A DNA stretch of 64,000 nucleotides from a virus (IMGVR_UViG_3300029288_001928:69444-133443), one strand, 5' to 3'. Shown: positions 7,972 to 45,276, numbered from the stretch's first letter. Program-made: numbers and translations. The notes: generated from the letters alone by a model not told the origin.

Positions 7972-8898
7972 ATGTTAAACCTTGGTTATTGTTGTATAAA
8001 TCAGACTTTACGGAATAAAAAGATTCCTGTATATGGGTCTAGGTCTTTAAATAGAAAAAATTTTACACTCATGAAGGCTAGTCAACTGGCATTACAGAAT
8101 GTTAAAGACATTTTAACTATTTTACATTGGAATGAGTCTAATAACATTCGCGTTTTTCGTATTGGATCTGAACCATTACCTAGATCAAATGATCCATTGG
8201 TAGGATATTCTATTGACCAATTGCCGGATAGTGTAGAGATTATAAAAATATTAAAATCTATTGGAAAATTTGCATACGATCATAAACATTTACTTTCTTT
8301 TCATCCTGGCCAATTCGTATGTATTGGTTCTTCTAACGAGTCGGTTAGACAAATGGGTATACTGGCATTAGAGAGAGAAAATGAAGTAGCAGACATAATA
8401 TGTTCAGAGTATAAGTCTCATTTACCTATCAATATACATGTTGGCAGTTCATATGGTTTAGATTTTTTAAACACATCTAATAGATTTATTAATTCTTTCA
8501 ATTCATTATCACCAACTTTAAAGTATCGCTTGACAGTTGAGAATGACGACAAAGTTAATGGTTGGTCTGTGCATAACTTATTTTACTATCTAAGTTTACG
8601 TATTGATATTCCTATTGTATTTGATGTTCATCATTGGAAGTTTTGTAATGATTATAAGTCTATTGATGACAATAAGATGTATAATGACTTTTTATTAGCA
8701 TATTCTACATGGCATACAAATATGCAAGTGCATTATAGTGAATCTTCAAATATCAATAAGTTAATACCAAAACATTCAGAGTATTGTACATCATTAATGC
8801 CAAAGTGGTTAAATGAGTTTAACGATATTCATATTCATATTGAGGCTAAACAGAAAGAATTGGCTGTTTTACAATATAAAAAACTAATTGACTTTTGA
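7972..8898 (+). CDS. uvsE: UV damage endonuclease UvsE/UvdE
   Basis: LGYCC, SFHPGQF, NIHVG, RLTVENDD, VFDVHH, VHYSES and EAKQKE motifs. Confidence 0.93.
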   Translation: MLNLGYCCINQTLRNKKIPVYGSRSLNRKNFTLMKASQLALQNVKDILTILHWNESNNIRVFRIGSEPLPRSNDPLVGYSIDQLPDSVEIIKILKSIGKFAYDHKHLLSFHPGQFVCIGSSNESVRQMGILALERENEVADIICSEYKSHLPINIHVGSSYGLDFLNTSNRFINSFNSLSPTLKYRLTVENDDKVNGWSVHNLFYYLSLRIDIPIVFDVHHWKFCNDYKSIDDNKMYNDFLLAYSTWHTNMQVHYSESSNINKLIPKHSEYCTSLMPKWLNEFNDIHIHIEAKQKELAVLQYKKLIDF

Positions 8899-8959: not shown

Positions 8960-10672
8960 ATGGCTAACAAGTCTATTTTCAAGTCGAACAAGACTCGTAA
9001 TTCAGTAGTTGTAGAGGCAGCGGATTGTGTAAACAATGCTGGTGGTGTTGCTTACAAGCAAACTGACAAGCATGCTCTTGCACAATACTGTCTAACAGGT
9101 ACTATTTCAAATACTTTCTATTCAAATGCTGAAGCACAATTGGATGAAATTTTAAAATTATCCAAGAAAGTACCAACAGAGTTTATTGCTAAATTAGCAG
9201 TTTATGCCCGTGAACATGGGTATATGAAGGATACTCCTGCTGTCCTTTGTGCAATTCTTGCAGTACGTGATGTAGAATTGTTAAAGAAAGTGTTTCCTCT
9301 TGTAATGGATAACGGTAAGATGGTACGCAACTTTGTTCAGATAATCCGTTCTGGCAAGGTTGGTCGTAAGTCTTTTGGTTCTTCATTGAAGAAAATGATT
9401 CAGAAGTGGATCACATCTCGTCATGAAAATCAATTATTCCGTGATAGTGTTGGCAATGATCCATCATTGTGTGACGTTATAAAGATGGTACGTCCTCGTC
9501 CAGCAGACAAGGTTCGTGAAAATCTTTACGCTTATATTACTGGACACCTATCATTTAGTATGAAGAACGATAAGTTAACCATTGCAAAGACTATTCCTTG
9601 TAAGGGTGAAGTAAAGACCGTAAAGGTTTCATCTAAGGATATTCCAAAGATAATTTGTGAATATGAGACATATAAGCTAACAAAGAATGGGGAAGTACCA
9701 GATGTTCCATTCCAAATGCTAACTGCATTGGATCTTGGAAAGAAAGAATGGACTTCTATTGCAGATAACGCAAAATGGACTATGACCCGAATGAATCTAA
9801 ACACATTCAATCGTCATGGTGTATTTGAAGATCGAAAGATGATTGCGAAGATAGCGTCTCGCCTATCTTCTAAGGAAGAAATTCAAAAGGCAAAAATCTT
9901 TCCATATCAGTTATTTGCGGCATATATGAATACCGAAGATGTTCCACATGAAATAAAGGAAGCATTACAGGATGCAATGGAAATTGCTATTGATAATATT
10001 CCTTCTATTGACTGTCAGGTTTATATTGCTTGTGATACCAGTGGTAGCATGAGTAGTAACATTACTGGAAATCGCGGAAGTGCATCATCTAAGATTCGTT
10101 GTATTGATGTTGCTGCACTAATCAGTTCAGCAATATTGAGAAAGAATCCAAGTGCAAAGATATTACCATTCGATACAACCGTTCATAAGTGTAACTTTAA
10201 TCCAAGAGATAGTGTAATGACAAATGCACGTACTCTTGCTAAGTTTGGTGGTGGAGGAACATCATGTGCAGCACCTATTGCTACTCTAAATGCATCAAAT
10301 GCTAAGGGTGATCTAGTTATAATGATTTCTGACAACGAATCATGGGCATCTTTCAACAAACAGAATTATTATGGTGATTCGGGAACAGAAATGTCTAGTG
10401 CATGGAAGCAATTTAAACTTCGCAATCCAAATGCTAAGTTGATTTGTTTAGATCTTGTTCCAAATAACCATTCACAAGCGAAGAATTCAGAAGATGTCTT
10501 GAATATTGGTGGATTCTCTGATATTATATTTGATATATTTGCTTCCTTCATTAAGGGAGACCTATTTAATGAAGCATTTACAGCAGTCATCGAATCTGTA
10601 TCTTTAGACTCCAAAAATGTTAGAAAGGCATTATCATCTGAAAAGATTGAAGTGGAAAAAGCAAAGAAGTGA
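8960..10672 (+). CDS. rsr: Ro60/Rsr RNA-binding protein (TROVE plus vWA domains)
   Basis: NNAGG.AY, LAQY...TFY, MKDTPA, TRMNLNTF.RHG, FPYQL; MIDAS motif DTSGSM, GGGT, SDNESW. Confidence 0.93.
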   Translation: MANKSIFKSNKTRNSVVVEAADCVNNAGGVAYKQTDKHALAQYCLTGTISNTFYSNAEAQLDEILKLSKKVPTEFIAKLAVYAREHGYMKDTPAVLCAILAVRDVELLKKVFPLVMDNGKMVRNFVQIIRSGKVGRKSFGSSLKKMIQKWITSRHENQLFRDSVGNDPSLCDVIKMVRPRPADKVRENLYAYITGHLSFSMKNDKLTIAKTIPCKGEVKTVKVSSKDIPKIICEYETYKLTKNGEVPDVPFQMLTALDLGKKEWTSIADNAKWTMTRMNLNTFNRHGVFEDRKMIAKIASRLSSKEEIQKAKIFPYQLFAAYMNTEDVPHEIKEALQDAMEIAIDNIPSIDCQVYIACDTSGSMSSNITGNRGSASSKIRCIDVAALISSAILRKNPSAKILPFDTTVHKCNFNPRDSVMTNARTLAKFGGGGTSCAAPIATLNASNAKGDLVIMISDNESWASFNKQNYYGDSGTEMSSAWKQFKLRNPNAKLICLDLVPNNHSQAKNSEDVLNIGGFSDIIFDIFASFIKGDLFNEAFTAVIESVSLDSKNVRKALSSEKIEVEKAKK

Positions 10673-12036: not shown

Positions 12037-13383
12037 ATGTTGAATTTAAATGATTTAAAACAAAAATTAAATGAAGTATTTGAGACGGATATTCCGTCTT
12101 TACATAAAAAATTAGTCGAAATGGTTAAAAAATGGAATGGTAAAATCTATCTTGTTGGTGGTGCAGTAAGAGACGAAATTATGGGATATGAATCCAAAGA
12201 TATGGATTATGTTGTAACTGGAATTGAAAGAAATAAATTAAAGGAAGAATTATTAAAAACTCTACCAGGATCAAAAGTTAATGAGGCTGGTGCTAATTTT
12301 GGTATAGTGATTGTAAATATTGGTGATGATCAATTTGAATTTGCTTTACCAAGATCCGATATAGATCGTGATACTGTAAAAACAAATCCTAATTTATCAA
12401 TTGAAGAAGATTTATTAAGAAGAGATTTTACAATAAATGCAATTGCAAAAGATCTTGAAACCGGAAAATTAATTACTGCACCCAATTACAATGGAATTGA
12501 TGATATAAAAAATAAAATATTACGAACTGTAGGAGATGCAAATAAAAGATTTAAAGAAGATGGATTACGAATTTTGAGATTAATTCAATTTTCTGCCAGA
12601 TTTGGGTTTAAAATAGACCCATATACATTAAATGCAGTCAAAACAAATATTGATTTGTTATCATCCGTTTCCAAAGAAAGATTTAAAGAGGAATTCAAAA
12701 AAGGATGGGTAAAAGGGTGTCGAGATACAAATACATTTTTTTATTTATTAAAAGAAACTGGAATAGGAAATATGATTTTTGGAAAAGATTTTAATCCAAT
12801 TCCATTAAATATTAAAGAATTTTCAGAAAATGATGCGTTTATTATTCAAAATATTGGCGCTTTTATTAACGGAGGAAATTTTGAAGTTGTTAATATTTCA
12901 AAAAAAGACAAACATCCAATAATTTTATCAATAATATTAAAAGATGTTTTAGAAAATAAATTTGATTTAGAAAAATCAAAACAAATTTATAAAATATTTA
13001 ATGAAAATATTAATTATGTATTAAATGCGTTTAATATAATTGATAAAAAATTATTTAAAGAATTAAAAAAATATTTAAAAACTCCTTGTATGCCTTTTAT
13101 TGGAGACACATATAAATCTTGGATGTTACCAGTTAAAGGCGAAGAAATACTTAAATTTTCTGAAGAAAATGGAATTGTATTAACTGGTAGTTCTATAGGT
13201 AAAATTATAGACGAATTAATTTTATCATATCAAAACAAAAAAATAAAAATAAACAATGATTTATCAAAATCAAAAGAAATAGTAAAAAATTATTTATTAA
13301 CAAATATATTTCAGACTAAAAATATAAAAGATTCTATAAATTTAGAAATTCTTAAAGAAAGAATGAGAAATATTTTAAGATAA
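12037..13383 (+). CDS. cca: tRNA nucleotidyltransferase (class II CCA-adding enzyme family)
   Basis: YLVGGAVRD, KDMD, RRDFTINA, F.ED.LR.LR and SKER motifs. Confidence 0.92.
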   Translation: MLNLNDLKQKLNEVFETDIPSLHKKLVEMVKKWNGKIYLVGGAVRDEIMGYESKDMDYVVTGIERNKLKEELLKTLPGSKVNEAGANFGIVIVNIGDDQFEFALPRSDIDRDTVKTNPNLSIEEDLLRRDFTINAIAKDLETGKLITAPNYNGIDDIKNKILRTVGDANKRFKEDGLRILRLIQFSARFGFKIDPYTLNAVKTNIDLLSSVSKERFKEEFKKGWVKGCRDTNTFFYLLKETGIGNMIFGKDFNPIPLNIKEFSENDAFIIQNIGAFINGGNFEVVNISKKDKHPIILSIILKDVLENKFDLEKSKQIYKIFNENINYVLNAFNIIDKKLFKELKKYLKTPCMPFIGDTYKSWMLPVKGEEILKFSEENGIVLTGSSIGKIIDELILSYQNKKIKINNDLSKSKEIVKNYLLTNIFQTKNIKDSINLEILKERMRNILR

Positions 13384-25400: not shown

Positions 25401-25691
25401 AAATTGGGTAATATTTTAAAGAAGAAATTAATGGCAGGATTGAAAAATGTTACAAAAGGACTATTAAAAGCATCTCTTGGTACGGCAGGAAACTTAATAA
25501 AAACTGGTGCAATGATTTTAGCAGCATCACAAGGATATCAAGGTCCATTTATGTTTATGCCATTTGGAAAAGATTCATATAAAAAGATATGGAACTTTAT
25601 GTATGCTAATAAACAAGCAACATCATTAGATAAAGAATTGAGAAGAAAAGGGTCGTCTAATATGTCGTCACAAAAAAATAAGACAAATTAA
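22410..25691 (+). CDS. Large acidic late protein with internal repeats, probable virion/ejected protein
   Basis: 1093 aa; TATAAATA at 22373-22380; Gly-rich patch; repeated QS..AR..A...AIQF...PL...W...W units. Confidence 0.7.
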   Translation: MPGFVKTAADEKVWSKAKNIAKDRGLSGDSMYAYANAVFHKMKESIELTENDLNLLQEKIDVYSQIDYPIKSLNEEEIWHIMNAIMTECEHFNKKLEEENRYLVLEYLFNNYKTTINENDYSRIKEYVEGMVIPNAKCSYNDKEIQYGVISEDYISGGYGGVASNDYGIGGTGYYGANNRRSGFGGPRGGGQMSRRATGNPDRVITAAIGDEPVEVNIEPKQSNYKPWEVQLTPNGEKVNNIERNKVQNDIDDEWNSELGAMIQGLEYIGLNLNELEDMSQEQIEDLMIKKLKKVGQDFQKEMGTQLTEDMNIPDKITALFEDDIETLEEKLQKHSRIQDAREVLSTKHQVHKAIEKNKDRAYVIDQYGVEKLMKQYGYVYDDNNLKWLKKAHSPSPEDVKPKSSTDTKPTDIKAPKNLPDEDKEKISKPEDFNVVGDVPEKQSSETTDGLEKLEPTEKDYNKFKTIKDPVTLESKLKPLMARFIISLSQESKEPSEFELKDNGLLVPKIEDKEVLLKMHDRKLEWNGEKDIWVDDTNTLPEIIFNSGDSRQSLLARSYLASMGEIAAIQFDMEHNPLFSAEESNNRMESHGYVWNGEVNKWLYNQKDLAESLNESVLYEQEPKKPEIKLAIPDNKAEELQARFLYRAIQLKALENVPDWQKPKIDAIKDQIIDPTLDLKSLNINIIEKLLTGKGSAVNDNTSDKNNNETKKVEETLISRMKQLFSEQDDELTLSGDEENDPADELSIQGDPEEDKNEPAGNTTWDMENDDSDLSKVLLDNKNNIVPNEIYEWNDNLHFWVEGRGSKAFPSVLEDKGENIQSFTGRAIIAQKDLRAIQFEESGMPLMDKDRVLRILKQNDIKWSDKRNIWFTGTEIDEEDIQEELNELENLLKKNDDKILKRYNNGTAFNGDIIPITEYTGLVNAIIAKKIIAGGKLSEKEWYYAPEGNELEIKKGEDRREKERNIFKEKYDIRKEKIEDENVEPELTHKITIKPKVKLGNILKKKLMAGLKNVTKGLLKASLGTAGNLIKTGAMILAASQGYQGPFMFMPFGKDSYKKIWNFMYANKQATSLDKELRRKGSSNMSSQKNKTN

Positions 25692-26740
25692 ACTATCCAC
25701 CCACCACCTAAACAATGTCTTGACCCATCAGTTAATTCATCAGAATATATTACAGCAGTTTGACCCTTATTGGCCTTTACGATTTTATCATTCACTAGCG
25801 TAATTATATTGCCGTTTATGGTACATTTATGCAAAGTACCACCATGCCGAACTCGTACCCATCCGGCTGTAGGAATAATTGGTGAAATCCAATTTGGTCG
25901 TTCAATGTTAATGGTGTCTGTTAATAATGATTCTCGTGGCCCCACCACAAGCACATTATTAATAACATCTATTTTAATAACAAACATTTTTACAGGTTTA
26001 AAAATTTCTAGTCTCTGACTTTGGCCAATTGTATATAAAACTGCCCCCTTGTGGCGACCGATTATATTACCATCTAAATCTAATACATTTCCTGGGTTAC
26101 AATAATCAGGTAAATGTCTCTTTAAAAAATTACTATTTCCATCGGATATAAAACATACATCCATTGATTCTTTTTTATTCCAATTTGGAAGATTTGAATC
26201 TTTACCAATATTTCGAACATATGGTTTAGTCATACCACCAATAGGAAATATGGTGTTAGATAATTGTTCCTGTGTCATTTGCCATAAAAAGAATGTCTGA
26301 TCTTTTTTAAGATCATATGAAGTTTTCAACATGTAAAAATCATTTACCTGTTCAATTCTTGCATAATGACCAGTTGCAATCTTTTCACATCCTAACTTTT
26401 TTGCAAACTCCCACATATAATGCCACTTACAATGTGAGTTACAAATTGTACATGGACTCGGAGTTTCACCATTTTTAAAAGAATTAATATAATATTTTAC
26501 AACATCATTGTAAAATTGATCTGTTAAAGTATATAGATAATGAGGAAATCCCTTATCATTAGCAATTAACTTTAGGTTTAAATGGTCTTGTGGACCGCAA
26601 CACGAACCTTCCCGTGAAGTGATACACTCACTCCAAAGTCTCATTGTTACACCAATAACATCATATCCTTGCTCTTGTAAAACAATAGCAGATGTTGAAC
26701 TGTCTATACCACCAGATAAACCGACTGCGACCTTAACCAT
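25688..26740 (-). CDS. mnmA: tRNA U34 2-thiouridylase MnmA
   Basis: SGGIDS PP-loop, TPSPC..CN, IATGHY, KDQTFFL, ESMDVCF, YTIGQ and GQ.AV.Y motifs. Confidence 0.95.
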   Translation of the reverse strand: MVKVAVGLSGGIDSSTSAIVLQEQGYDVIGVTMRLWSECITSREGSCCGPQDHLNLKLIANDKGFPHYLYTLTDQFYNDVVKYYINSFKNGETPSPCTICNSHCKWHYMWEFAKKLGCEKIATGHYARIEQVNDFYMLKTSYDLKKDQTFFLWQMTQEQLSNTIFPIGGMTKPYVRNIGKDSNLPNWNKKESMDVCFISDGNSNFLKRHLPDYCNPGNVLDLDGNIIGRHKGAVLYTIGQSQRLEIFKPVKMFVIKIDVINNVLVVGPRESLLTDTINIERPNWISPIIPTAGWVRVRHGGTLHKCTINGNIITLVNDKIVKANKGQTAVIYSDELTDGSRHCLGGGWIV

Positions 26741-26783
26741 TTTTGTTTCCTTTGGTCGCATTATAACAGTATGAGTTTAAAAG

Positions 26784-31071: not shown

Positions 31072-32486
31072 AATTCTGTCGCAAGAAAGCCCTCTCCATT
31101 TAGGGAAGGGATGAATTGCGACTCTGAATAAACTTTCTTATTGAAAATAATTTAAGATTTGGTATAATTGGGATATAAATAAAAATAGGAAGTTACTATA
31201 GTATGAATTGTATTAATCAAAGAATAAAGACAAAGAAAGAAACATCTGCCCGAAGGGCAGATATGTCTGTCTGTTGTTATGAATTGAAAATACAAGAAAA
31301 TAAACTTTCAACTAAACAATACCAAAAATTAATAGATTATTTCAAACAAGCAAAATATTTAACTAACTCAATTATCGGAAGTAAAGATGTTTTTAATTAT
31401 GATTATAAAACAAAACAAGTGGAAATAAAATGGAAAGAAAATAATATAGAAAAAACAGAAACCAAAAATATTTCTCTTCCTTCTCAAATTAAACAAGATA
31501 TAAAAACAAAAATAATAACAAATATATTAAATTTGAATAAAGCAAAAAAGAAAGGTATGAAAGTTGGTAAATTAAAATTCAGAAAAGAAATTAATTCCAT
31601 TGGTCTTAAACAATTTGGATGTACTTGGAAATTTGGACCAAAAAATAAAGTTCATATTGCTGGTGTTGGATTTGTTAAAGTCAATGGTATTGATCAAATA
31701 CCAAAAGATATATCAGAATTTGGTTGTGCTAAATTAATTAGAAAATCAACTGGTTATTTTGTTCAAATAACTGGATTCAAACCAAAAGACCAAATACAAA
31801 ATATGGAAATTGATAAATCTGATATAGTTGGATTAGATTTTGGTATTAAAGATGATATAACTTTATCTACTGGCGAAAAAATAAACTTTGATTTCAATAC
31901 AAATAATATTATTAGAGAACAAAAACGTCTAAGTAAAAAGAAAAAAGGAAGTAAAAATAGATTCAAACAAATACTAAAATTGAAAAAACAACACCAAAAA
32001 TTAGTAAATAAAAAGAATGATACTTCTAATAAATTCGTCTCAACATTAAAAAATAAATACAAATTGATTTGTATTCAGGACGAAAATATTAAAGGATGGC
32101 ATTCTGGATTTTTCGGAAAACAAGTTCAACATTCAATACTAGGTAGGATAAAAAGCAAGTTGATGAAACTTAATACTACATTAGTTGTTGATCGTTTCCA
32201 ACCAAGTACAAAACTATGTCCTATGTGTGGATCATTAAATAAATTAAAACTAAATGATCGTATATATAAATGTAGTTGTGGATTTTGCGAAGATCGTGAT
32301 ATTAAATCTGCAAAATTAATCACTGTACTTGCTCTAAATCAATATATAGGTACGGAACATACCAATTTTAAGCCTGTGGAGATACTAACCTCTGGTTTAT
32401 CTGAAAAGTATAATATACTTTTTAATAATATTAAGTTAGAATCGTTGAATCAGGAAGCCCCTATCCTTTAGGATGGGGTAGTTCAC
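31072..32486 (+). mobile_element. IS200/IS605-superfamily tnpB-only element; left boundary approximate
   Basis: Related subterminal hairpins AAGCCCTCTCCATTTAGGGAAGGG (left) and GAAGCCCCTATCCTTTAGGATGGGGTAGTTCAC (right); no tnpA; opposite strand to its neighbours. Confidence 0.8.
31203..32471 (+). CDS. tnpB: TnpB RNA-guided nuclease family protein
   Basis: RuvC-I GLDFG, RuvC-II-like IQDE, zinc finger CPMCG...CSCG, RuvC-III DRDIKSA. Confidence 0.9.
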   Translation: MNCINQRIKTKKETSARRADMSVCCYELKIQENKLSTKQYQKLIDYFKQAKYLTNSIIGSKDVFNYDYKTKQVEIKWKENNIEKTETKNISLPSQIKQDIKTKIITNILNLNKAKKKGMKVGKLKFRKEINSIGLKQFGCTWKFGPKNKVHIAGVGFVKVNGIDQIPKDISEFGCAKLIRKSTGYFVQITGFKPKDQIQNMEIDKSDIVGLDFGIKDDITLSTGEKINFDFNTNNIIREQKRLSKKKKGSKNRFKQILKLKKQHQKLVNKKNDTSNKFVSTLKNKYKLICIQDENIKGWHSGFFGKQVQHSILGRIKSKLMKLNTTLVVDRFQPSTKLCPMCGSLNKLKLNDRIYKCSCGFCEDRDIKSAKLITVLALNQYIGTEHTNFKPVEILTSGLSEKYNILFNNIKLESLNQEAPIL

Positions 32487-35599: not shown

Positions 35600-36631
35600 A
35601 AATGTGATTCTTCTAAAATTTTGTTTGTAGATTTTTGTAGATCTTCAAAAAGTTTAGATAGATCCTTTTCTGATATATGTTTAGATGTTATTACTACATC
35701 ATTAATTAACTCTATTAGTTTTGATAAAGTTTTTTTATTTTTATTTAATTCTGGTCGTAATGCATTTCCACAACAACATATATATCCACATAAAGGACAA
35801 GGAGGCATTTCCCACATGATTTTCTCCTATGATCGAATTATATTCAACTTTTTTAAAAAGTCAATATCAAATCATAGGAAAGTATAAATCACCTAATCTG
35901 TGAAACTGTAGCATCCACAATGAACTTAGATCAAAACGAAAAAGAGGATATTCCCATTTGTTTCCTCCATCTACATAAACAATCTTATCTCTTACAAATA
36001 TGTCCATTATTGTATATAAAGATGCTCTAATCCTATGATAATCTGTACCTAAAGATTTTTCAACTTCATATTTTGATTTTAAAATATTTAATATTTCTTT
36101 TTCCCATACATTAGGTTTACACCAAGTAAATAATTCTTTCTTAGATGTAAATGCTTTTATTGTAGCATGTAAGACATCAATTGTTAATATGTCATCAAAT
36201 AAATTATTCACTTGTTTATATCTTGCATAAGGAAAATATATTCGATGTGAGATGTTTGGACTCCAGTTAAATAAGAACTATTCTTATTTATCCGGATTTA
36301 GTATATATTTAGTAACCCAATTTTTCCATACTTTTACAAAATGATCAGGAATTATTATTTTTGCATCAATTTGTTTTTTTAATAAATTATCAATTGAATA
36401 TTGAGTTGAAAGATATTTAAATTCGTTTTCAAATATATTAGGAATAAAAGAAATATCACCACTTATATATGTAACATATAAGTAGCGATACAATTCATAA
36501 ATATCTAATAATGGTCCTTGATCGGAATAACAAAATTCTCTTGTCAAATCAGACAAAGAACACGGCTGATTTAAAGTAATATACCTTGTTATATATTTTT
36601 TATGATCAAATGATAATCCCATTAAACATAT

Positions 36632-37249
36632 TTAGATTCCAAAATACGTGAATTTTATTCTTTTACTTATCATTTCTGTTATTGAGGTTTCCATATTTCC
36701 CATAGGAACATCAACCTCTTTGCATGCATCTAAAATAACAGTAGTTGTATATCCTAAATCTACTGCATCTAATGCAGTAAATTTAACACAATAATCAGTA
36801 GCGAGTCCACAAATAAACAATTCTGAAATATTATGATCTTTTAGATATTGGTTTAAACCTGTATCATTTTTCTTATTGTTATCGAAAAATGCACTATAGC
36901 TATCAACTGTAGGATCTGTACCTTTTTGGAAAATTTTATTTATTTTATGTTTATTTAAGTCTGAATGCAACTGTGCGCCATATGTATTTTGTACACAATG
37001 GATTGGCCACAACATTTGAGGACTTCCACTTAATGTTCCCATAGTGTATGGATCTTTATTATGATTTACTGCAAAACTTCCATGTGATATAGGATGCCAA
37101 TCTTGGGTTGCAATAATAAGATCATTATTATTACTAAATTGTTCTATAATCGCGTTTGCAGGATATACAACAGTATTTCCTAATGGTACTGCTAATTGTC
37201 CGTCTGGACAAAAATCATTTTGAATATCTACTAGTATTAATGCTTTCAT
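36632..37249 (-). CDS. pncA: Nicotinamidase/pyrazinamidase
   Basis: VDIQNDF, TQDWHP..H.SF, WP.HCVQ, KG...DSYSAF, GLATDYCV..TA.DA; catalytic D, K and C intact. Confidence 0.96.
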   Translation of the reverse strand: MKALILVDIQNDFCPDGQLAVPLGNTVVYPANAIIEQFSNNNDLIIATQDWHPISHGSFAVNHNKDPYTMGTLSGSPQMLWPIHCVQNTYGAQLHSDLNKHKINKIFQKGTDPTVDSYSAFFDNNKKNDTGLNQYLKDHNISELFICGLATDYCVKFTALDAVDLGYTTTVILDACKEVDVPMGNMETSITEMISKRIKFTYFGI

Positions 37250-37262
37250 GTCTAGTTCCTTT

Positions 37263-38120
37263 CTAAAGTAAAATGCTTCCCTTTAAACTCCAATCAGTGT
37301 AAAGATTTCCAGTTGGATAAAATATTAATTGTCTAATTGTTTCTTCTGATGGGTCTATCGTTAAACAGTTTGTTAAACAGAAATTTTGACCGAATAAATC
37401 ATATACTGCCGCACCATGTAAAAGATTGTAAAGTAATTTACCATTCTTAATAACAAAATCTTTTATAGACTCTATTTGTGACGGGTCCAAACTATTTTTT
37501 AAGATCCATTCCATAGTCGTATTTTCTGGATGAGAAACTGGTCTCCATGTTAATTGTTTAACTCCTAGTTTATCTGCCCATGACAATAACATTTTAATTT
37601 TATTTGGAGAATCAATACCTCCTTTTATACCCATTGTAGTTAGTCGTGCATTTATTCCATAAGATTTACATTTATTTACTATTTTTTCTATATCAATCCA
37701 TCGTGGATCATTTGGAAAATAAATTTGTCTATTTAATTCTGCATCGTATCCAACATTACTAATAAGAATAGTTGTTAATCCTAGTTGTGCCCATTCGCTC
37801 AAAAATTGGTTAATCGAATCATCTTCAAGTATTTTTCCATTTGTTTGCAATTCTATGAAAGGGAAATTAAATTTATTTAACTCTTCTAAATATGTGGTAA
37901 TTTGAGTTGGAAATAATAACGTTTCCCCTTTTCCTGTGAGTATAACAGTAGTAACATTACCTATTTCTGCTAATCTAAGAGATTTTTTTAGATTTCTTAT
38001 ATTAATAGAATCACATATTAACTTTTCATTTGGAAGAAATGTCATTTTAGAAATACAAAATGGGCATGATGCGTTGCATGCTTTAGTACCAACTACTAAT
38101 GATAAAGTTTGAAATTTCAT
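37263..38120 (-). CDS. Radical SAM enzyme of unknown function within the NAD cluster
   Basis: CNASCPFC (CxxxCxxC), LTGKGE, ELQTNG. Confidence 0.88.
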   Translation of the reverse strand: MKFQTLSLVVGTKACNASCPFCISKMTFLPNEKLICDSINIRNLKKSLRLAEIGNVTTVILTGKGETLLFPTQITTYLEELNKFNFPFIELQTNGKILEDDSINQFLSEWAQLGLTTILISNVGYDAELNRQIYFPNDPRWIDIEKIVNKCKSYGINARLTTMGIKGGIDSPNKIKMLLSWADKLGVKQLTWRPVSHPENTTMEWILKNSLDPSQIESIKDFVIKNGKLLYNLLHGAAVYDLFGQNFCLTNCLTIDPSEETIRQLIFYPTGNLYTDWSLKGSILL

Positions 38121-38167
38121 TCTGTTTCCTTAGCTACATTATAATAATAAGTTTAAAATAGTCAATA

Positions 38168-39838
38168 TCATTTTTTTACAATTGGTAATCTACGTCCGGT
38201 CCCAAATGCTACTTTACTTAGTTTTATAGTTGGGCAGGCTTGTCTACGTTTAAACTCACTATTGTATATTAATCTTGTAATCCTATTATAATCATTTTTA
38301 GTAACGGATGATTTTGTAATTTCATAATATGTTTCGTAATCTGTTACATAATCTTCAATATAAAGACGGCAAATTTCATCCAACAATGGATATGGCAATA
38401 GACTTTGTTCATCTGTTTGACCGGGACGCAATTCTGCACTTGGAGCCTTGTTAATAATATTAGTTGGTATCAGATCAGAATATAACATATTTATTATGCG
38501 TGCCATTTCATATACTTCGCATTTATACAAATCTCCAATAGGATTAAATGTTCCTGCCATATCTCCAAACAAGGTGCTGTAACTCACGGATAGCTCCGTT
38601 TTATTTCCTGTAGTTAATGATAATGCTCCTGTAGCATTACTAAAATGCATAACTATTTGTCCACGCATCCTTGCTTGTAAATTTTCATCAGCAACAGTAT
38701 TATAATTTTCTAAGTGTAAATTGGAATTTATTGTATGTAATAAATCTTCATGCTTTATAGGTACTAAATATTCATTACATTTTAAATTCGTATGTAATTG
38801 TTTCGCATCTAATAAACTACCTTCACTACTGTAAATAGATGGCATCATTATACAATTTACATTAGTTGGACCAAATGCTAATGTAGAAAGAGTAGCGACC
38901 AATGCACTATCAATACCTCCGCTACTACCTATTACAATTTTTGAAAATCCACTTTTAGTTACATAATCATATAATCCCAATAAAACCATTTTTAGATGAT
39001 CAAATTCTAAAATAGGAGTAAAATATGAACAATTCACTCCCTTTGCAGGAATATCCATAGTTTTAAATATATCAATTTCTTTTTTGGGTAATATATCAGT
39101 TTGAATTAATTTATATATATCACCATTTGAAATAACACAACTATGTCCATCAAATATTAATTCGTCGTTCCCACCAATTTGATTAACATAAATCAAATTT
39201 ATAGGATTATTCCAGTTTTTTGTAACAGACTTCAACAAATTAATTCTTGCAATTGGTTTATTTTTTGAATATGGAGAACTGTTGATGCTAAAAATATAAT
39301 TAACACCAATATCTTTTAATTGTGTTATAGGATCATCTTTATATCTAATATTTCCTGTTTCTCCTTTGTCACTTCTCCATAAATCTTCACAAATTAATAC
39401 AGAACATAAATTATTATTTACTTTAAATATGCATGGTTCGGTTCCTGGTTCAAAATATAAAAATTCTTCGAAAACGTTATATGCTGGCAAAAGTCTTTTT
39501 TGATATGTAGCAGAAATTACCCCATTTTGTATAATTGCGGCCATGTTTCTAAATGGCTTTCCATATCCTTTATAATTCCTATCAATATAACCAACAATAA
39601 CTGTCAATTTAGCGTTTTTGGTTAATTCTGCTATTTTCTGTAAATAAAGTAGGTTCTTCTCAATAAACCCATGAGTGTAAACTAAATCCCTTACTAAGTA
39701 ACCAGGAATTGATAATTCTGGAAATACAACAACATCAGAATCATCAGATATTGCAGAGTTAATACCATTTAAAATCTTTGAAAAGTTGCCTTCAAAGTCA
39801 TTTGGTGTAGTGTTAATTTGTGCTATAGTTATTTTCAT
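38168..39838 (-). CDS. nadE: Glutamine-dependent NAD+ synthetase
   Basis: Nitrilase-like domain (FPEL..PGY, K..LP.Y.VF.E, ICEDLW) plus synthetase domain (SGGIDS, ENLQARMRG, TGNK.E, KAPSAELRP.Q.D, EFKRRQ). Confidence 0.96.
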   Translation of the reverse strand: MKITIAQINTTPNDFEGNFSKILNGINSAISDDSDVVVFPELSIPGYLVRDLVYTHGFIEKNLLYLQKIAELTKNAKLTVIVGYIDRNYKGYGKPFRNMAAIIQNGVISATYQKRLLPAYNVFEEFLYFEPGTEPCIFKVNNNLCSVLICEDLWRSDKGETGNIRYKDDPITQLKDIGVNYIFSINSSPYSKNKPIARINLLKSVTKNWNNPINLIYVNQIGGNDELIFDGHSCVISNGDIYKLIQTDILPKKEIDIFKTMDIPAKGVNCSYFTPILEFDHLKMVLLGLYDYVTKSGFSKIVIGSSGGIDSALVATLSTLAFGPTNVNCIMMPSIYSSEGSLLDAKQLHTNLKCNEYLVPIKHEDLLHTINSNLHLENYNTVADENLQARMRGQIVMHFSNATGALSLTTGNKTELSVSYSTLFGDMAGTFNPIGDLYKCEVYEMARIINMLYSDLIPTNIINKAPSAELRPGQTDEQSLLPYPLLDEICRLYIEDYVTDYETYYEITKSSVTKNDYNRITRLIYNSEFKRRQACPTIKLSKVAFGTGRRLPIVKK

Positions 39839-39847
39839 TTTATTTCC

Positions 39848-41014
39848 TCAATCTAATGGTTTATTAAAAAATGTCCACATTGCAACTCGTAGAGCATCTT
39901 TATCACCAATTGCTTTACTTGGACTATCGCTTAATTTTACAACTGGTATCCCATTAACACTATTTAATTTGATAACAATATTTAATGGTTTACTATCGAA
40001 ATTATTTGTTAAGTGAGTACCAATCCCGAAACTACAACGGATTCTCCCTTTACAATAATTTGATATTGCAAGTGCCTTTTCACAATCTAGACCATCACTA
40101 AAGATAATCAATTTAGTTATCGGATCAATGCTCATTGTTTTATAATGTTCTATTGCTTTATCTGTAAATGAAAATGGGCATCCACTATCATGTCGTATTC
40201 CATCATATTCTCTTGATAGACTACCATCAAAATCTCGAAAAAACGCATCTGTTCCAAAAGTATCAGTCAATGCATATCCAAGCGATCCATTATATATTTC
40301 TTGCCATTTATGTAATGCAAATTTATTTGCATAACGAAGTCCTTCAAGCGCCGATATTCCTTGGACAAATTCATGTGCAACCGTTCCGATTGCTCTTAAA
40401 TTATGTTTCATTGCCAAAAACATATTACTTGTTCCAAAGAAATTATCAAAGTTCTTCAATTCCTTTACAACAATATTTTGTACTTCGAAACTCCTTCTGC
40501 GTCGTGTTCCAAAATCTGTAAATTTATCTTTCATTCGTGAAAGATATTTTCCTTTTTCTTTTGCTAAATATTCTTGATCTGCTTCCCAATCTTCACGTTT
40601 CCAATTAGTGTCAACATTGTTAAAGTATGATTCTGAAATAATTGCCATCAATGGAACTTCCCATAAAACAGTTTCATGCCACAAACCACTAATACTAATA
40701 TCTAAATCTCCATCAATGAGTTTTACACTCACTTGAGAAGCCTTAAACCTATAATTCTTCAAATAGTGTAAATAATATATTGGTAGGAACTTATAATCTT
40801 GTAAAAAATTAAGTTCTTCGTCCGTTAATACAAGATTTTCCATTTCTTTTATATTAGTCACAATATCATTATAGGAAGATCCATTAAACTTCATATTTGT
40901 ATTTCTATTAATGAATTTATATGTAACATGTGTAGTAGGATATAATTGCAAAATTGCATTTTGCATAGTTATTTTATATAAATCTGTGTCTAATATGGAT
41001 TTGATATATCCCAT
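39848..41014 (-). CDS. pncB: Nicotinate phosphoribosyltransferase
   Basis: SILDTDLYK.TMQ, LWEVPL, DFGTRRR, GTSN, GTVAHE (phospho-His), LTDTFG, RHDSG, FSDGL, FGIGT.L, K.SD...K. Confidence 0.95.
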   Translation of the reverse strand: MGYIKSILDTDLYKITMQNAILQLYPTTHVTYKFINRNTNMKFNGSSYNDIVTNIKEMENLVLTDEELNFLQDYKFLPIYYLHYLKNYRFKASQVSVKLIDGDLDISISGLWHETVLWEVPLMAIISESYFNNVDTNWKREDWEADQEYLAKEKGKYLSRMKDKFTDFGTRRRRSFEVQNIVVKELKNFDNFFGTSNMFLAMKHNLRAIGTVAHEFVQGISALEGLRYANKFALHKWQEIYNGSLGYALTDTFGTDAFFRDFDGSLSREYDGIRHDSGCPFSFTDKAIEHYKTMSIDPITKLIIFSDGLDCEKALAISNYCKGRIRCSFGIGTHLTNNFDSKPLNIVIKLNSVNGIPVVKLSDSPSKAIGDKDALRVAMWTFFNKPLD

Positions 41015-41034
41015 GGTGTATTCCTTATGGCACG

Positions 41035-41062
41035 ATTATAAAAGACTATTTTTGAAAGTCAA
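41035..41062 (-). promoter_or_regulatory. Early promoter of pncB-nadE (TTGACT-N16-TATAAT)
   Basis: Consensus elements just downstream of the 41066-41102 terminator; a second N16 promoter at 38138-38165 precedes rSAM-pncA. Confidence 0.75.
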
Positions 41063-41065
41063 ATA

Positions 41066-41102
41066 AAAATAGCCACCTACTATGATAATAGGTGGCTATT
41101 TT
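41066..41102. terminator. Intrinsic terminator separating the rSAM/SPASM operon from the NAD cluster
   Basis: AAAATAGCCACCTA/TAGGTGGCTATTTT inverted repeat. Confidence 0.85.
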
Positions 41103-41735: not shown

Positions 41736-42371
41736 TTAATGATGACTTATTCTAAGATTAGGCAAAGTATCAAATATTCCTCCATGTTCTAAAAGTCCTT
41801 CTCCACTATTATCTGAATATGTTAATACTGCAACATATTTGTCTTTATATTTTTCTTTAAATAATTCTATAACTTTATTAGAAATTTTATTTATTTTATT
41901 GTTATATTCATCGGATAATATTTCATATAATTTCTTTTCTTCCGCATTTTCTGATGATGGATAAGATTGACCAGTCAATCTTTCAAATTCATCACTATAA
42001 TTTTCTGGTATTTCATTTATATCTAAGAATTCTGAAATTATATCTTTATATTTATCGTTTGATCTATGTATTGGCGCATTATGTAAATATGATTCGATTT
42101 CATCTTTAACTATTTGCCATACATCACATGTTACAGATTTATTTTTTTCATATGAATAATGTGTATATGAAATATTGTTTAAATCTGAAAATACACGATT
42201 GATTATATCATCTACCGTTAGAGTATAATCATATTCTCTAATTATGGAATTTCCTGATACACCAGGATACATCATTTTCTTTAATTCTTCTTTTGTTTCT
42301 GGATTTTTATCAAATAAAACTATAAAAGAACTTGAACTTGAGTTAGTTACAAAATCTGTTCTAATTTTCAT
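41736..42371 (-). CDS. MKIRxDFVTNSSSSSF-motif protein (paralog 1)
   Basis: N-terminus MKIRTDFVTNSSSSSFIV; C-terminal YSDN.G..LEHG.IF..LP..RISHH; ATGA overlap with the rSAM gene. Confidence 0.85.
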   Translation of the reverse strand: MKIRTDFVTNSSSSSFIVLFDKNPETKEELKKMMYPGVSGNSIIREYDYTLTVDDIINRVFSDLNNISYTHYSYEKNKSVTCDVWQIVKDEIESYLHNAPIHRSNDKYKDIISEFLDINEIPENYSDEFERLTGQSYPSSENAEEKKLYEILSDEYNNKINKISNKVIELFKEKYKDKYVAVLTYSDNSGEGLLEHGGIFDTLPNLRISHH

Positions 42372-43501
42372 TTTAAATCCTTTTCTTTTAAATCACATAA
42401 TACTATTTCTCGTTTAATTGGGCATCCACCCATACATAAATCTCTTTTTGTACATGATGGACAAGAATTTTTCATATGCAATCTAAATTCATTAAATTGT
42501 TCACTGTTCCATGCTTCCTCTAGTGTAAATTGTTTTAAATCTACACCCCACTTAAAATCTTGGTCAAATGAGCAAGGTATTGCAATCATATCGGAAGAAA
42601 TATAGTGGCTGTACCTACCCCCCTCACAACTATCTATAGAATAAGAACTTACATTGTTTGTATAGTTTAAAATCCCAGGAACAGTACAACTATCAAATCC
42701 TATTTTGAATGATGGTTTACAAGTGTCAATGAGTGAGAAGAAATGTTTTAATTTAGGATCATTCGGTTTAATTACGTTATTTTGACAACCTAAACCAACT
42801 GGTTTGTGTAGAAGGAATATTACTGCGTTTATTCCTTTTGGAAAGGAATCATTTATAATCCTTTCAATAGCTTCATCTATAGTATTATTTCCTAATACAT
42901 AGTGGATATTTGTTTTACATCCATAATCAATAAATCTTTTTATTGCTGATATAGTATGGTCATTACGATACCAAGAAATTGCTACCGCACCACAACAAGA
43001 TTTAGTTAATTCAATTTCTGTATCCGTTAAATCTAATCCACTTGTAGTGTAATTAGGAACAATATAATTATCACGACAATATGATAATATTTCCCCAAAA
43101 TGTTCATGTTTATTTGGGTCTCCCCTACCACCCAATGCAAATTGTTGGATTTTACCTTTACACTGATCTACAATTGTTTTAAAATCATTTAGTGTCATAT
43201 TAGGTTTACTAATATTTTTACCATTTTGATAGCATTGAACACCAGCATTTAAGCATAAGCCTTTTTCACCATTTAAACATCTTCCCATAATACCAACGTC
43301 TATGAGGGATGGGTATGATCCCATAAACGGATCAACACCAGTATCCTTGCCATTTTCATCTAGGATTCCAGTACGCATATAGAATCCTGTTTTCATATTA
43401 AAAACAGAATAGAATTTAAATTGTTTATCGAATTGATGGATTTCGTCACCATGTTTAAAAGATTTTAATTTATCATTATCTATTAAAGTAACTTGGTGCA
43501 T
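42368..43501 (-). CDS. Radical SAM/SPASM-domain enzyme with atypical CX7CX6C cluster motif
   Basis: CLNGEKGLCLNAGVQCYQ, ALGGRGDP, NYTTSG; SPASM cysteines CEGG, PCSF, CPSC...CMGGCP. Confidence 0.85.
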   Translation of the reverse strand: MHQVTLIDNDKLKSFKHGDEIHQFDKQFKFYSVFNMKTGFYMRTGILDENGKDTGVDPFMGSYPSLIDVGIMGRCLNGEKGLCLNAGVQCYQNGKNISKPNMTLNDFKTIVDQCKGKIQQFALGGRGDPNKHEHFGEILSYCRDNYIVPNYTTSGLDLTDTEIELTKSCCGAVAISWYRNDHTISAIKRFIDYGCKTNIHYVLGNNTIDEAIERIINDSFPKGINAVIFLLHKPVGLGCQNNVIKPNDPKLKHFFSLIDTCKPSFKIGFDSCTVPGILNYTNNVSSYSIDSCEGGRYSHYISSDMIAIPCSFDQDFKWGVDLKQFTLEEAWNSEQFNEFRLHMKNSCPSCTKRDLCMGGCPIKREIVLCDLKEKDLK

Positions 43502-43684: not shown

Positions 43685-44242
43685 TTAAACTTCATGCAAA
43701 TAATTTTTCCTATAATTTTTTAGATATGTTAATACACTTAAATGTAATTCTGCTTTATGATAAAAATTTTGCATGTCTTCGCTGGATGAATCGTATATAG
43801 GTTTTTCGTTTTCTACTATTTCTATTGCGTCTTTACATGTATTAGTATTAGTATTAGCAAATACTCTATGGATATATGATCCAACGTATTTAGAAAATCC
43901 TGGTCCTGTTGTATCAATATCTAACATTTCTTCTGCAAGACATTTTAAACAAGTACATGGTATACATACACAGTCTCCTGTATGCGATCCGTTCAATGCG
44001 GAAACATATTCATCAAATAATGTATTTAAATATTGCTCTCTTTCTTCTGTATATAAATTACAATCTTCTGCTTCTGATAGAGCACGTTGTAAGTTATAAT
44101 TTTCTTTTGTTAAATAAAATTTTATAGAAAATACTACATCTTCCAAATTTTCTTTTTCTACTTTTAATCTTAGATATTTTTTATCAAAAGTATCTAAGTC
44201 AACAATAGAATTTAATGGGTTTTGAGTGTAAATTATTTTCAC
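43685..44242 (-). CDS. Hypothetical protein with Cys cluster
   Basis: H.GDC.C.PC.C.KC motif. Confidence 0.65.
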   Translation of the reverse strand: MKIIYTQNPLNSIVDLDTFDKKYLRLKVEKENLEDVVFSIKFYLTKENYNLQRALSEAEDCNLYTEEREQYLNTLFDEYVSALNGSHTGDCVCIPCTCLKCLAEEMLDIDTTGPGFSKYVGSYIHRVFANTNTNTCKDAIEIVENEKPIYDSSSEDMQNFYHKAELHLSVLTYLKNYRKNYLHEV

Positions 44243-45276
44243 AGCCCGACACCTTTATTTAATTGTTCCATAAACCACAATCTTGCTTTATTTGATACTG
44301 GTTTAGCAACTTGTTTTATTTCAAGATTATTATTTACAATAACATCCAATTCTTCTTTGGCAATGTCTCCCATAATCCACTTTAGGAATTCTCCCATTTT
44401 AGTAATATCTAGATTACCATCTGGGAAAACCTTTTGTAATCCTTGGGTTAGTCGATTTTCAGTTAACGCATAATCAACAAACTTTTGTATTGATTCTAAT
44501 ACTTCCGTATCGACTGGTGCTAAAGTCTTTACTTTGGAAATACTATGTTTCTCCCCTTTTACTTTGAAAATATGACGTTGATCATTATGCCAGCCTTCCC
44601 ATACAACACCTTCTCCGACACCAGATACGCCAAATGCCTTGCCTACAGGGCATTCCTTTTCAACTTGTTCTGTAATTTCAACAAGTTTATTCTGTGCTAA
44701 TTGTGGTAAAGAAAAATCAATGTCGATTGTAAATGTAGGATAATCTTTTATGTTAAAGATTCTATTTTCTGTTGAACGAATATTATCACATGGATAATAT
44801 GATCCATCATAATTACCTTCTTCATTCTTTTTTGAAATTTTAACTGCAAAGATTATAAAAAGTTTATCAACTTCTGCAATAGCAACGGATTTCTGAATAC
44901 CCTTACCAGCCCATTCACCGAAAATGGTTATAATATCTTCTATAGATGCATTATACTTGTTTCGTATATCAACAAGCATCGTCTTGAAAATATCTTGATT
45001 TTTGTAAACGAATTGTGCAAATCCGTTATTATCTGATGTTGGAGTAATAACACGCTCACGGGATTGTACCCAAATTTCATCATTTTGTAAGCAAATACCG
45101 GAGTTCGTGCCATGGATTTTGGTCGTTCCAGTAAAAGTAATTACTGGAAGTGCAATAGTAGGATCAAAAATAGGATCCCCCTTTTCATCTTTACCTTTAT
45201 AACGAGCATGGTCCGTAACTGCTTTAATAACGTTACGAAACTGCCCAATATCTGTAAAACTAATGTGTGTAGACAT
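44239..45276 (-). CDS. ATP-dependent RNA ligase, Rnl2-like
   Basis: Motif I KIHGTN, QSR, FGEWAG.GIQ, motif IV EGVV, motif V FKVK. Confidence 0.85.
   Translation of the reverse strand: MSTHISFTDIGQFRNVIKAVTDHARYKGKDEKGDPIFDPTIALPVITFTGTTKIHGTNSGICLQNDEIWVQSRERVITPTSDNNGFAQFVYKNQDIFKTMLVDIRNKYNASIEDIITIFGEWAGKGIQKSVAIAEVDKLFIIFAVKISKKNEEGNYDGSYYPCDNIRSTENRIFNIKDYPTFTIDIDFSLPQLAQNKLVEITEQVEKECPVGKAFGVSGVGEGVVWEGWHNDQRHIFKVKGEKHSISKVKTLAPVDTEVLESIQKFVDYALTENRLTQGLQKVFPDGNLDITKMGEFLKWIMGDIAKEELDVIVNNNLEIKQVAKPVSNKARLWFMEQLNKGVGL

Follow-up and report, generated by a model that had tools for sequence, protein, structure and literature searches.

The DNA analyzed here is a 64,000-nucleotide stretch of an IMG/VR virus contig (IMGVR_UViG_3300029288_001928:69444-133443; hereafter, the window). 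Its minus strand carries four adjacent genes, which encode a nicotinate phosphoribosyltransferase (PncB), a glutamine-dependent synthetase (NadE) of nicotinamide adenine dinucleotide (NAD+), a radical S-adenosylmethionine enzyme of an uncharacterized family (hereafter, rSAM), and a nicotinamidase (PncA). We consider it probable that this cluster is a Preiss-Handler-type module by which the phage salvages nicotinamide, without an adenylyltransferase of its own. The rSAM, which a preliminary description of the stretch had treated as a passenger, is instead the most consistently NAD-linked and the least understood part of the cluster.

The 133,443 bp contig from which the window is taken (offset 69443) comes from a landfill metagenome and has an estimated completeness of 62%. 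Genes for a portal, a large terminase, and a tail sheath are all present on it together with the NAD cluster, and the GC content is uniform at ∼0.28–0.30 over the cluster and its flanks. This is a genuine phage contig of the myovirus type, and its contamination by non-phage DNA is very unlikely. A megablast search of the NAD locus against GenBank phages returned no match.

Salvage Enzymes and the Predicted Route

The four open reading frames (ORFs) are co-oriented and separated by gaps of 9–47 nt (Table 1). PncB is of the TIGR01514/PRK05321 type (447 bits against a cutoff of 270 and 469 against 379), and its H214, in the motif GTVAHEF, is the phosphorylatable active-site His, which aligns with GTQAHEW of 3OS4. 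NadE scores 512 bits with NF010588 against a cutoff of 479; E41, K114, and C150 of its glutaminase domain, together with the SGGIDS loop of its synthetase domain, align with 3N05 over both domains. PncA scores 280 bits with NF008623 (cutoff 174), and both its D8/K109/C148 triad and its metal site (D50, H52, H84) align with those of the Acinetobacter nicotinamidase 2WT9. Judged by sequence, PncB, NadE, and PncA are intact members of their families. The preliminary description had claimed four contiguous, co-oriented genes with intact catalytic motifs and an enzymology that runs from nicotinamide through nicotinate, nicotinate mononucleotide (NaMN), and nicotinate adenine dinucleotide (NaAD) to NAD+. 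The ORFs, the model scores, and the alignments to solved enzymes agree with the first claim, and the second is upheld by family scores above the cutoffs and intact catalytic residues.

In the predicted route, PncA would convert nicotinamide to nicotinate, which PncB would join to phosphoribosyl pyrophosphate (PRPP), with ATP, to form NaMN. A NadD/NadM-type enzyme, supplied by the host or by the missing ∼38% of the phage genome, would then turn NaMN into NaAD, and the glutamine-dependent phage NadE would complete the synthesis of NAD+. Host RNA polymerase would read the genes from their sigma-70-like promoters, probably ahead of the structural genes. The net effect would be that the NAD+ pool of the infected cell is kept up or rebuilt from nicotinamide released by enzymes that consume or destroy NAD; such rebuilding would also blunt NADase-type defenses. 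We infer which way the flux runs, when the genes act, and what the phage gains from them.

Transcription of the Cluster

Both promoters that the preliminary description assigned to the cluster are present at their sites, one ahead of pncB (P1) and one internal (P2), and both have the form TTGACT-N16-TATAAT. The window contains 15 exact copies of this motif where chance would give 0.08, and the 133 kb contig contains 21. None of the copies lies at 7–53 kb of the contig, where the portal gene and then the terminase and sheath genes are found, while 20 of the 21 fall at 53–133 kb, among tRNA, RNA-repair, and metabolic genes. Because of these counts and this distribution, we take the motif to be a genuine promoter class of the phage, which is probably read by the host polymerase. 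That the promoters are "early", as the preliminary description also stated, is suggested by their sigma-70 form and their distribution. The terminator that was said to insulate the cluster upstream is borne out as a hairpin with a T tract. One further promoter copy stands apart at ∼6 kb of the contig, ahead of an HNH endonuclease gene.

Table 1. Features of the NAD cluster and its boundaries (positions in the window)
Feature	Position	Strand	Basis
Intrinsic terminator, 17 bp stem, 3 nt loop, T tract; closes the upstream unit	41066–41102	−	hairpin
Promoter P1, TTGACT-N16-TATAAT, 20 nt upstream of the pncB start	41035–41062	−	motif
pncB, nicotinate phosphoribosyltransferase, E. coli type, 388 aa, H214	39848–41014	−	curated model, alignment
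nadE, glutamine-dependent NAD+ synthetase, 556 aa, nitrilase-type glutaminase and synthetase domains	38168–39838	−	curated model, alignment
Promoter P2, internal, same consensus, 17 nt upstream of the rSAM start	38138–38165	−	motif
rSAM, radical SAM enzyme, uncharacterized family, 285 aa	37263–38120	−	PF04055, motif, predicted fold
pncA, nicotinamidase, 205 aa; start 13 nt past the rSAM stop	36632–37249	−	curated model, alignment
orf112, no family match; start 9 nt past the pncA stop	36284–36622	−	ORF call, family searches
orf114, no family match; final ORF ahead of the next promoter	35867–36211	−	ORF call, family searches
Third promoter copy, opens the next unit; downstream limit of the NAD unit	35837–35864	−	motif

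The Pathway in Other Phages and in Bacteria

A Preiss-Handler pathway in phages is an idea already catalogued, and the preliminary description overstated its case in calling the pathway new. genes for PncB and an NAD synthetase have been annotated in Atu_ph07 since 2018; Li et al. (Microbiome 2024, PMC11662467) coined the term NAD-jumbo phages, with a pncB-nadD-nadE cluster in, for example, Kuafu_71; and a 2025 study (PMC12647753) lists pncA, pncB, nadM, and nadE among the genes of viruses of the candidate phyla radiation (CPR) and DPANN. Infection by the jumbo phage PA5oct upregulates the pncA-pncB1-nadE operon of its host. The deamidated route is not treated in the works on the phage NAD+ reconstitution pathways (NARPs) NARP1/2 and NARP3 or in the surveys of Iyer et al.

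The present phage resembles the NAD-jumbo phages of PMC11662467 in that it is large, has clustered pncB and nadE (pncA is also mentioned there), and is read in terms of the nicotinate route, and both that report and the present finding rest on bioinformatics. The NAD-jumbo clusters, however, were counted only if complete, with nadD, whereas this one has pncA and no nadD in the 133 kb; a radical SAM gene is never mentioned in that paper (0 occurrences).

The bacterial operons pncA-pncB-nadE and nrtR-pncA-pncB-nadD-nadE (Rodionov et al. 2008, PMC2330246) have the same enzymes in the same clustering, and that of Pseudomonas aeruginosa, pncA-pncB-nadE with nadD elsewhere, is like the phage cluster. 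The bacterial operons are cellular and repressed by NrtR, and radical SAM has 0 occurrences in that paper as well. By contrast, the phage cluster has phage-wide, constitutive-looking promoters, and the 133 kb contig contains no Nudix/NrtR gene.

To see how far the enzymes travel together, the preliminary description had proposed a survey of pncA, pncB, and nadE in phage genomes. Our scan of IMG/VR, run with a five-sequence alignment (a nine-sequence PncB alignment was too divergent), found 177 viral stretches that encode a PncB relative. Within 10 kb of PncB in the 80 best of these loci, NadE is present in 53, PncA in 34, and NadD and rSAM in 17 each; 28 of the 80 have both NadE and PncA and so contain the trio. 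PncB is also found in 13 GenBank phage records, including the huge phages of Al-Shayeb et al., Atu_ph07, and Phosso.

The Missing Adenylyltransferase

The preliminary description saw no NadD or NadM in the window and called for a search of the remaining genome for nadD, nadM, and prs. We ran this search on the 133 kb, and the absence holds well beyond the window: neither PF01467 nor a NadD profile from phage relatives finds a NadD or NadM, and Pribosyltran_N gives no match to a Prs-like protein. As a positive control, the same search method does recover PncB in the contig. Because NadD/NadM is missing from the 133 kb of a genome that is ∼62% complete, the adenylyltransferase has to be supplied by the host or be encoded in the part of the genome that is not covered, in agreement with the outside supply that had been predicted.

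Other NAD genes are likewise absent from the contig. The sole NAPRTase-family gene is PncB, with no Nampt; PnuC (PF04973) has no match; and neither an NAD-dependent DNA ligase nor Tpt1 is found, so that no NAD consumer of the phage was identified.

We asked whether the missing NadD also marks related genomes. Among virus records of at least 90% completeness, six carry the PncB-NadE-PncA trio or an rSAM-bearing Preiss-Handler cluster, and three of the six have no HIGH-nucleotidyltransferase domain. These three genomes are 100% complete, with terminal repeats, and measure 341, 208, and 405 kb. Since complete trio genomes lack this domain, dependence on host NadD is a recurrent design and not an assembly gap.

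The Radical SAM Protein: Sequence and Fold

Only the generic radical SAM model PF04055 matches rSAM (34.1 bits against 29.5). The CxxxCxxC motif (C15-x3-C19-x2-C22) is invariant in 26 homologues, in which C248 is the sole invariant cysteine beyond the SAM-cluster motif; the protein has this single cluster motif and no auxiliary-cluster cysteines. We found 548 homologues of ∼290 aa, nearly all metagenomic and without protein names, the closest being 60–65% identical. The protein-atlas clusters of rSAM are mostly viral, and PHROGs has no family for it. Fused forms of 500–2000 aa were not found, which is weak evidence.

The predicted model has a radical SAM fold (partial TIM barrel) with a mean predicted local distance difference test score (pLDDT) of 86.9. 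Its best structural matches over the full length are viperins (Z 20.4–21.0, root-mean-square deviation ∼3 Å, 235–237 residues aligned), followed by GDGT-MAS (Z 20.2), MoaA (19.8), BlsE (17.9), anSME, and DesII (16.7). Like viperin, rSAM has this fold with a single cluster and no auxiliary-cluster domain. It differs from viperin and MoaA in its scores, which are far below the cutoffs, and in its context, which is NAD metabolism and not defense or molybdopterin synthesis. The viperin model NF038283 (viperin_w_prok) reaches 27.9 bits against 180 and covers residues 12–116 only, the PADLOC pVip models give 33 bits, and TIGR02666 (MoaA) gives 25.9 against 284, with the second-cluster cysteines absent; QueE and NrdG activase identities were also rejected on score. 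A replacement for NadD was rejected because many loci carry both rSAM and NadD. The rSAM is thus a member of a separate family with a viperin/MoaA-like fold, of the kind common among enzymes that act on nucleotides or nucleotide sugars; its function does not follow from the fold.

The Radical SAM Protein: Genomic Company

To ask what rSAM travels with, we counted co-directional neighbors within 5 kb at 125 viral loci that encode rSAM or a sister subfamily of ∼300 aa. The three most frequent are NadE (32), PncB (31), and PncA (30), followed by PTH2, RtcB, a deaminase, NadD, the CCA-adding enzyme, TROVE, and Macro. After de-replication to 96 viral groups, PncB lies within three genes of rSAM in 16, PncA in 12, and NadE in 10. 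The order of the genes varies: pncB-nadE-rSAM-pncA in the present phage, pncA-rSAM-pncB-nadD-nadE in L007, rSAM-pncB-nadE-nadD-pncA in L038, and nadD-rSAM-pncB-nadE-pncA in L119. The link between rSAM and NAD genes is present with both of the non-orthologous PncB types. In the library of papers searched, none links a radical SAM enzyme with these NAD genes or describes this rSAM.

A scan of one genome per species yielded 160 rSAM relatives, all in metagenome-assembled genomes (MAGs) and mostly in DPANN archaea and CPR bacteria. Neighbors were counted at 80 of these 160 loci: Nudix/NrtR 43, NadE 29–31, PncB 28–32, PncA 27–29, NAD kinase (NadK) 27, NadD 15, NadA 15, ADP-ribosylglycohydrolase (ARH) 10, and PnuC 10. 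A pyridoxal phosphate (PLP) protein of fold type I lies directly downstream of rSAM in 38–39 of the 80, as in L260 (PncB-PncA-rSAM-PLP-NadK-NadE-NadD-NrtR-PnuC); the cellular locus L297 reads PncB-PncA-rSAM-NadE-NadD-Nudix-ARH-NadK. In at least two MAG loci ribosomal protein L14 is on the rSAM contig, and these are true chromosomes. The terminase of the present phage has no match in five rSAM-carrying MAGs. On a tree of 169 rSAM sequences the NAD-linked state changes 29 times, at least 13 of the changes being forced by well-supported branches; with shuffled labels the mean is 53.

NadA lies near rSAM in 15 MAGs (G039, G043–G056; loci within L261–L324), with NadB present in four and NadC in three to four. 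NadA without NadB or NadC may be an "orphan" quinolinate synthase or may reflect incomplete bins.

Three further observations concern individual rSAM loci. The PLP protein of the L246–L325 loci has ∼320–360 aa, is weakly HisC/CobD-like, and falls in no curated family (for example, L271:8843-9898 and L249:4546-5640). On the viral contig L002 (3222–12576; shared with L019), PncB, an NrtR-like Nudix/winged-helix protein, an NAD-dependent DNA ligase, and rSAM stand in a string that continues with an aldehyde dehydrogenase, an HD protein, and a CoaE-like kinase, so that makers and users of NAD are found together. On a 316 kb viral contig (L001:8001-8870, also L008) the rSAM match spans 8001–8867 and the table-11 ORF starts only at 8337, which implies an in-frame stop and suggests a recoded stop codon or a broken gene.

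Weighing the Readings

Some points weigh against a phage nicotinamide salvage module in which rSAM has its place. The 133 kb of the phage alone cannot complete the route, having no NadD/NadM. The rSAM is not obligatorily tied to the NAD pathway: of 11 rSAM phage records with a completeness of at least 90% and without PncB inside 10 kb of rSAM, eight lack PncB altogether, and about three-quarters of the viral rSAM lineages are in other contexts, some beside RNA-repair genes. For the module as a whole, a role in counter-defense is plausible by analogy with NARP1–3.

A dedicated role of this kind is the strongest of the alternatives, and we give it not quite an even chance. The cluster would be a dedicated counter-defense system, in effect a fourth NARP, that rebuilds NAD+ by the deamidated route after cleavage of the Thoeris, DSR, or SIR2-HerA type. 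Nicotinamide is the product of those NADases as well as the substrate of PncA; several phage routes for the restoration of NAD+ are known from NARP1, NARP2, and NARP3; and host-type promoters outside the structural module fit early action. However, no sequence feature ties the cluster genes to a defense system, bacteria and CPR/DPANN have very similar clusters as ordinary housekeeping operons, and the surveys that report such phage genes read them as metabolic (PMC11662467, PMC12647753). The route would also cost PRPP, 2–3 ATP, and glutamine, would need host NadD, and would be slower than NARP1.

The cluster falls into none of the described pathways. NARP1 (Adps and Namat), NARP2 of KVP40 (Nampt/NadV and Nmnat), and NARP3 (PnuC and NadR) are encoded by phages and restore NAD+ in the infected cell, as is proposed here, and the first two begin from nicotinamide, as the predicted route does. 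All three use amidated intermediates, have their own adenylyl-transfer or ligation step, and do not need NadE, whereas in this cluster nicotinamide would be deamidated first, NadE would be required, and the adenylyltransferase is missing. In the contig, NARP1 lacks its Pribosyltran_N match and the only NAPRTase-family gene is PncB; NARP2 is not represented, the phosphoribosyltransferase scoring as PncB and not Nampt, with no HIGH-nucleotidyltransferase domain; and for NARP3 there is no PF04973 and no PF01467 match. The Osterman preprint on NARP1/2 does not mention PncA, PncB, or NadE. An ordinary role in NAD supply fits the nicotinamide salvage module equally well, and the sequence cannot decide whether selection would act through NADase defenses or through general NAD supply.

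As to rSAM, we put a role that is NAD-related in any way at somewhat better than even, and its substrate is most likely a nucleotide or a pyridine compound linked to the pathway. More specifically, and only tentatively, rSAM may catalyze an undescribed reaction of NAD metabolism common to jumbo phages and CPR/DPANN, which makes nicotinate or a usable pyridine from an alternative precursor or which tailors a pyridine nucleotide. The idea of an alternative precursor follows from the NadA genomes, in which NadB and NadC are found in so few of the 15, within the limits set by MAG incompleteness.

It is rather unlikely that rSAM is instead a passenger of an accessory RNA/tRNA-repair or other toolkit, carried along where accessory genes cluster. 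RtcB, the CCA-adding enzyme, TROVE/Ro60, PTH2, an RNA ligase, and Macro are recurrent neighbors, the window itself has Ro60, a CCA-adding enzyme, and RNA ligases, and the eight near-complete phages without PncB noted above point the same way. Against this, NAD genes outnumber all other classes of neighbor in two independent collections, viral and MAG, and cellular rSAM genes sit inside NAD operons such as L297, with the CCA-adding enzyme at 3 and RtcB at 1 of the 80 loci.

A pathway to a modified pyridine nucleotide, in which PncA and PncB (and NadE) would feed radical chemistry by rSAM on the ribose or the ring, is a distinctly less likely explanation. The nearest folds are those of enzymes (viperin, MoaA, BlsE, DesII) whose target is the ribose in nucleoside triphosphates or in nucleotide sugars, and rSAM is embedded in the cluster, with P2 common to rSAM and pncA. 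The PLP enzyme that follows rSAM in 39 of the 80 cellular loci recalls pairs of an aminotransferase and a radical SAM enzyme such as DesI/DesII. This partner, however, is absent from the present phage and from all ∼200 viral loci examined; the sequence yields no substrate, and a shared fold does not show function.

Finally, cellular DNA misjoined to, or misread as, a phage contig is hardly credible: the nearest rSAM relative on the tree does sit on a contig binned as Woesearchaeota, and true chromosomes do carry NAD operons with rSAM, but here the portal, large terminase, and sheath genes share the contig with the cluster, one promoter motif is used inside the cluster and on either side of it, the GC content is uniform, and there is no PLP partner of the kind usual in cellular loci. 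The preliminary description had named a cellular origin as fatal to its proposal, and the structural genes place the contig with the phages.

Neighboring Genes

Downstream of pncA, orf112 is possibly co-transcribed with it, and orf112 and orf114 may both be part of the NAD-cluster transcript; no homologue of orf112 was found in related loci. A terminator-like hairpin at 36491–36453 lies inside orf112, is AT-rich, and was treated as chance. Just upstream of the terminator is a second radical SAM/SPASM gene (42368–43501, minus strand), unrelated to the rSAM of the cluster. A QueC-like gene (25688–26761, minus strand; phrog_1741, 3e-71) and a transposase-like gene (31203–32471, plus strand; phrog_506, 2e-41) lie upstream of the block of small ORFs that precedes the NAD cluster. 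The window also encodes a Ro60/TROVE-like RNA-binding protein (8960–10672), a CCA-adding enzyme (12037–13383), and an RNA ligase (44239–45276), families that recur near rSAM in other phages.

Implications

NAD+ is one of the central stakes in the conflict between phages and bacteria, and phages have so far been proven to rebuild it by three routes, each of which passes through amidated intermediates. Among uncultured large phages the nicotinate route is widespread; PncA and NadE are often part of it, and NadD is often missing. If it rescues phages from NADase defenses, a chemically distinct route, reliant on host NadD, would join the three. If rSAM does catalyze an undescribed reaction, the module would be a Preiss-Handler variant with an extra radical step, one that would matter for NAD during infection. 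NAD biosynthesis is regarded as fully mapped, and the presence of rSAM in NAD clusters of phages, candidate-phyla bacteria, and DPANN archaea would therefore point to a missing reaction or to a modified cofactor. The compact phage cluster, with rSAM and no PLP partner, may offer a simple system in which to find the reaction of rSAM.

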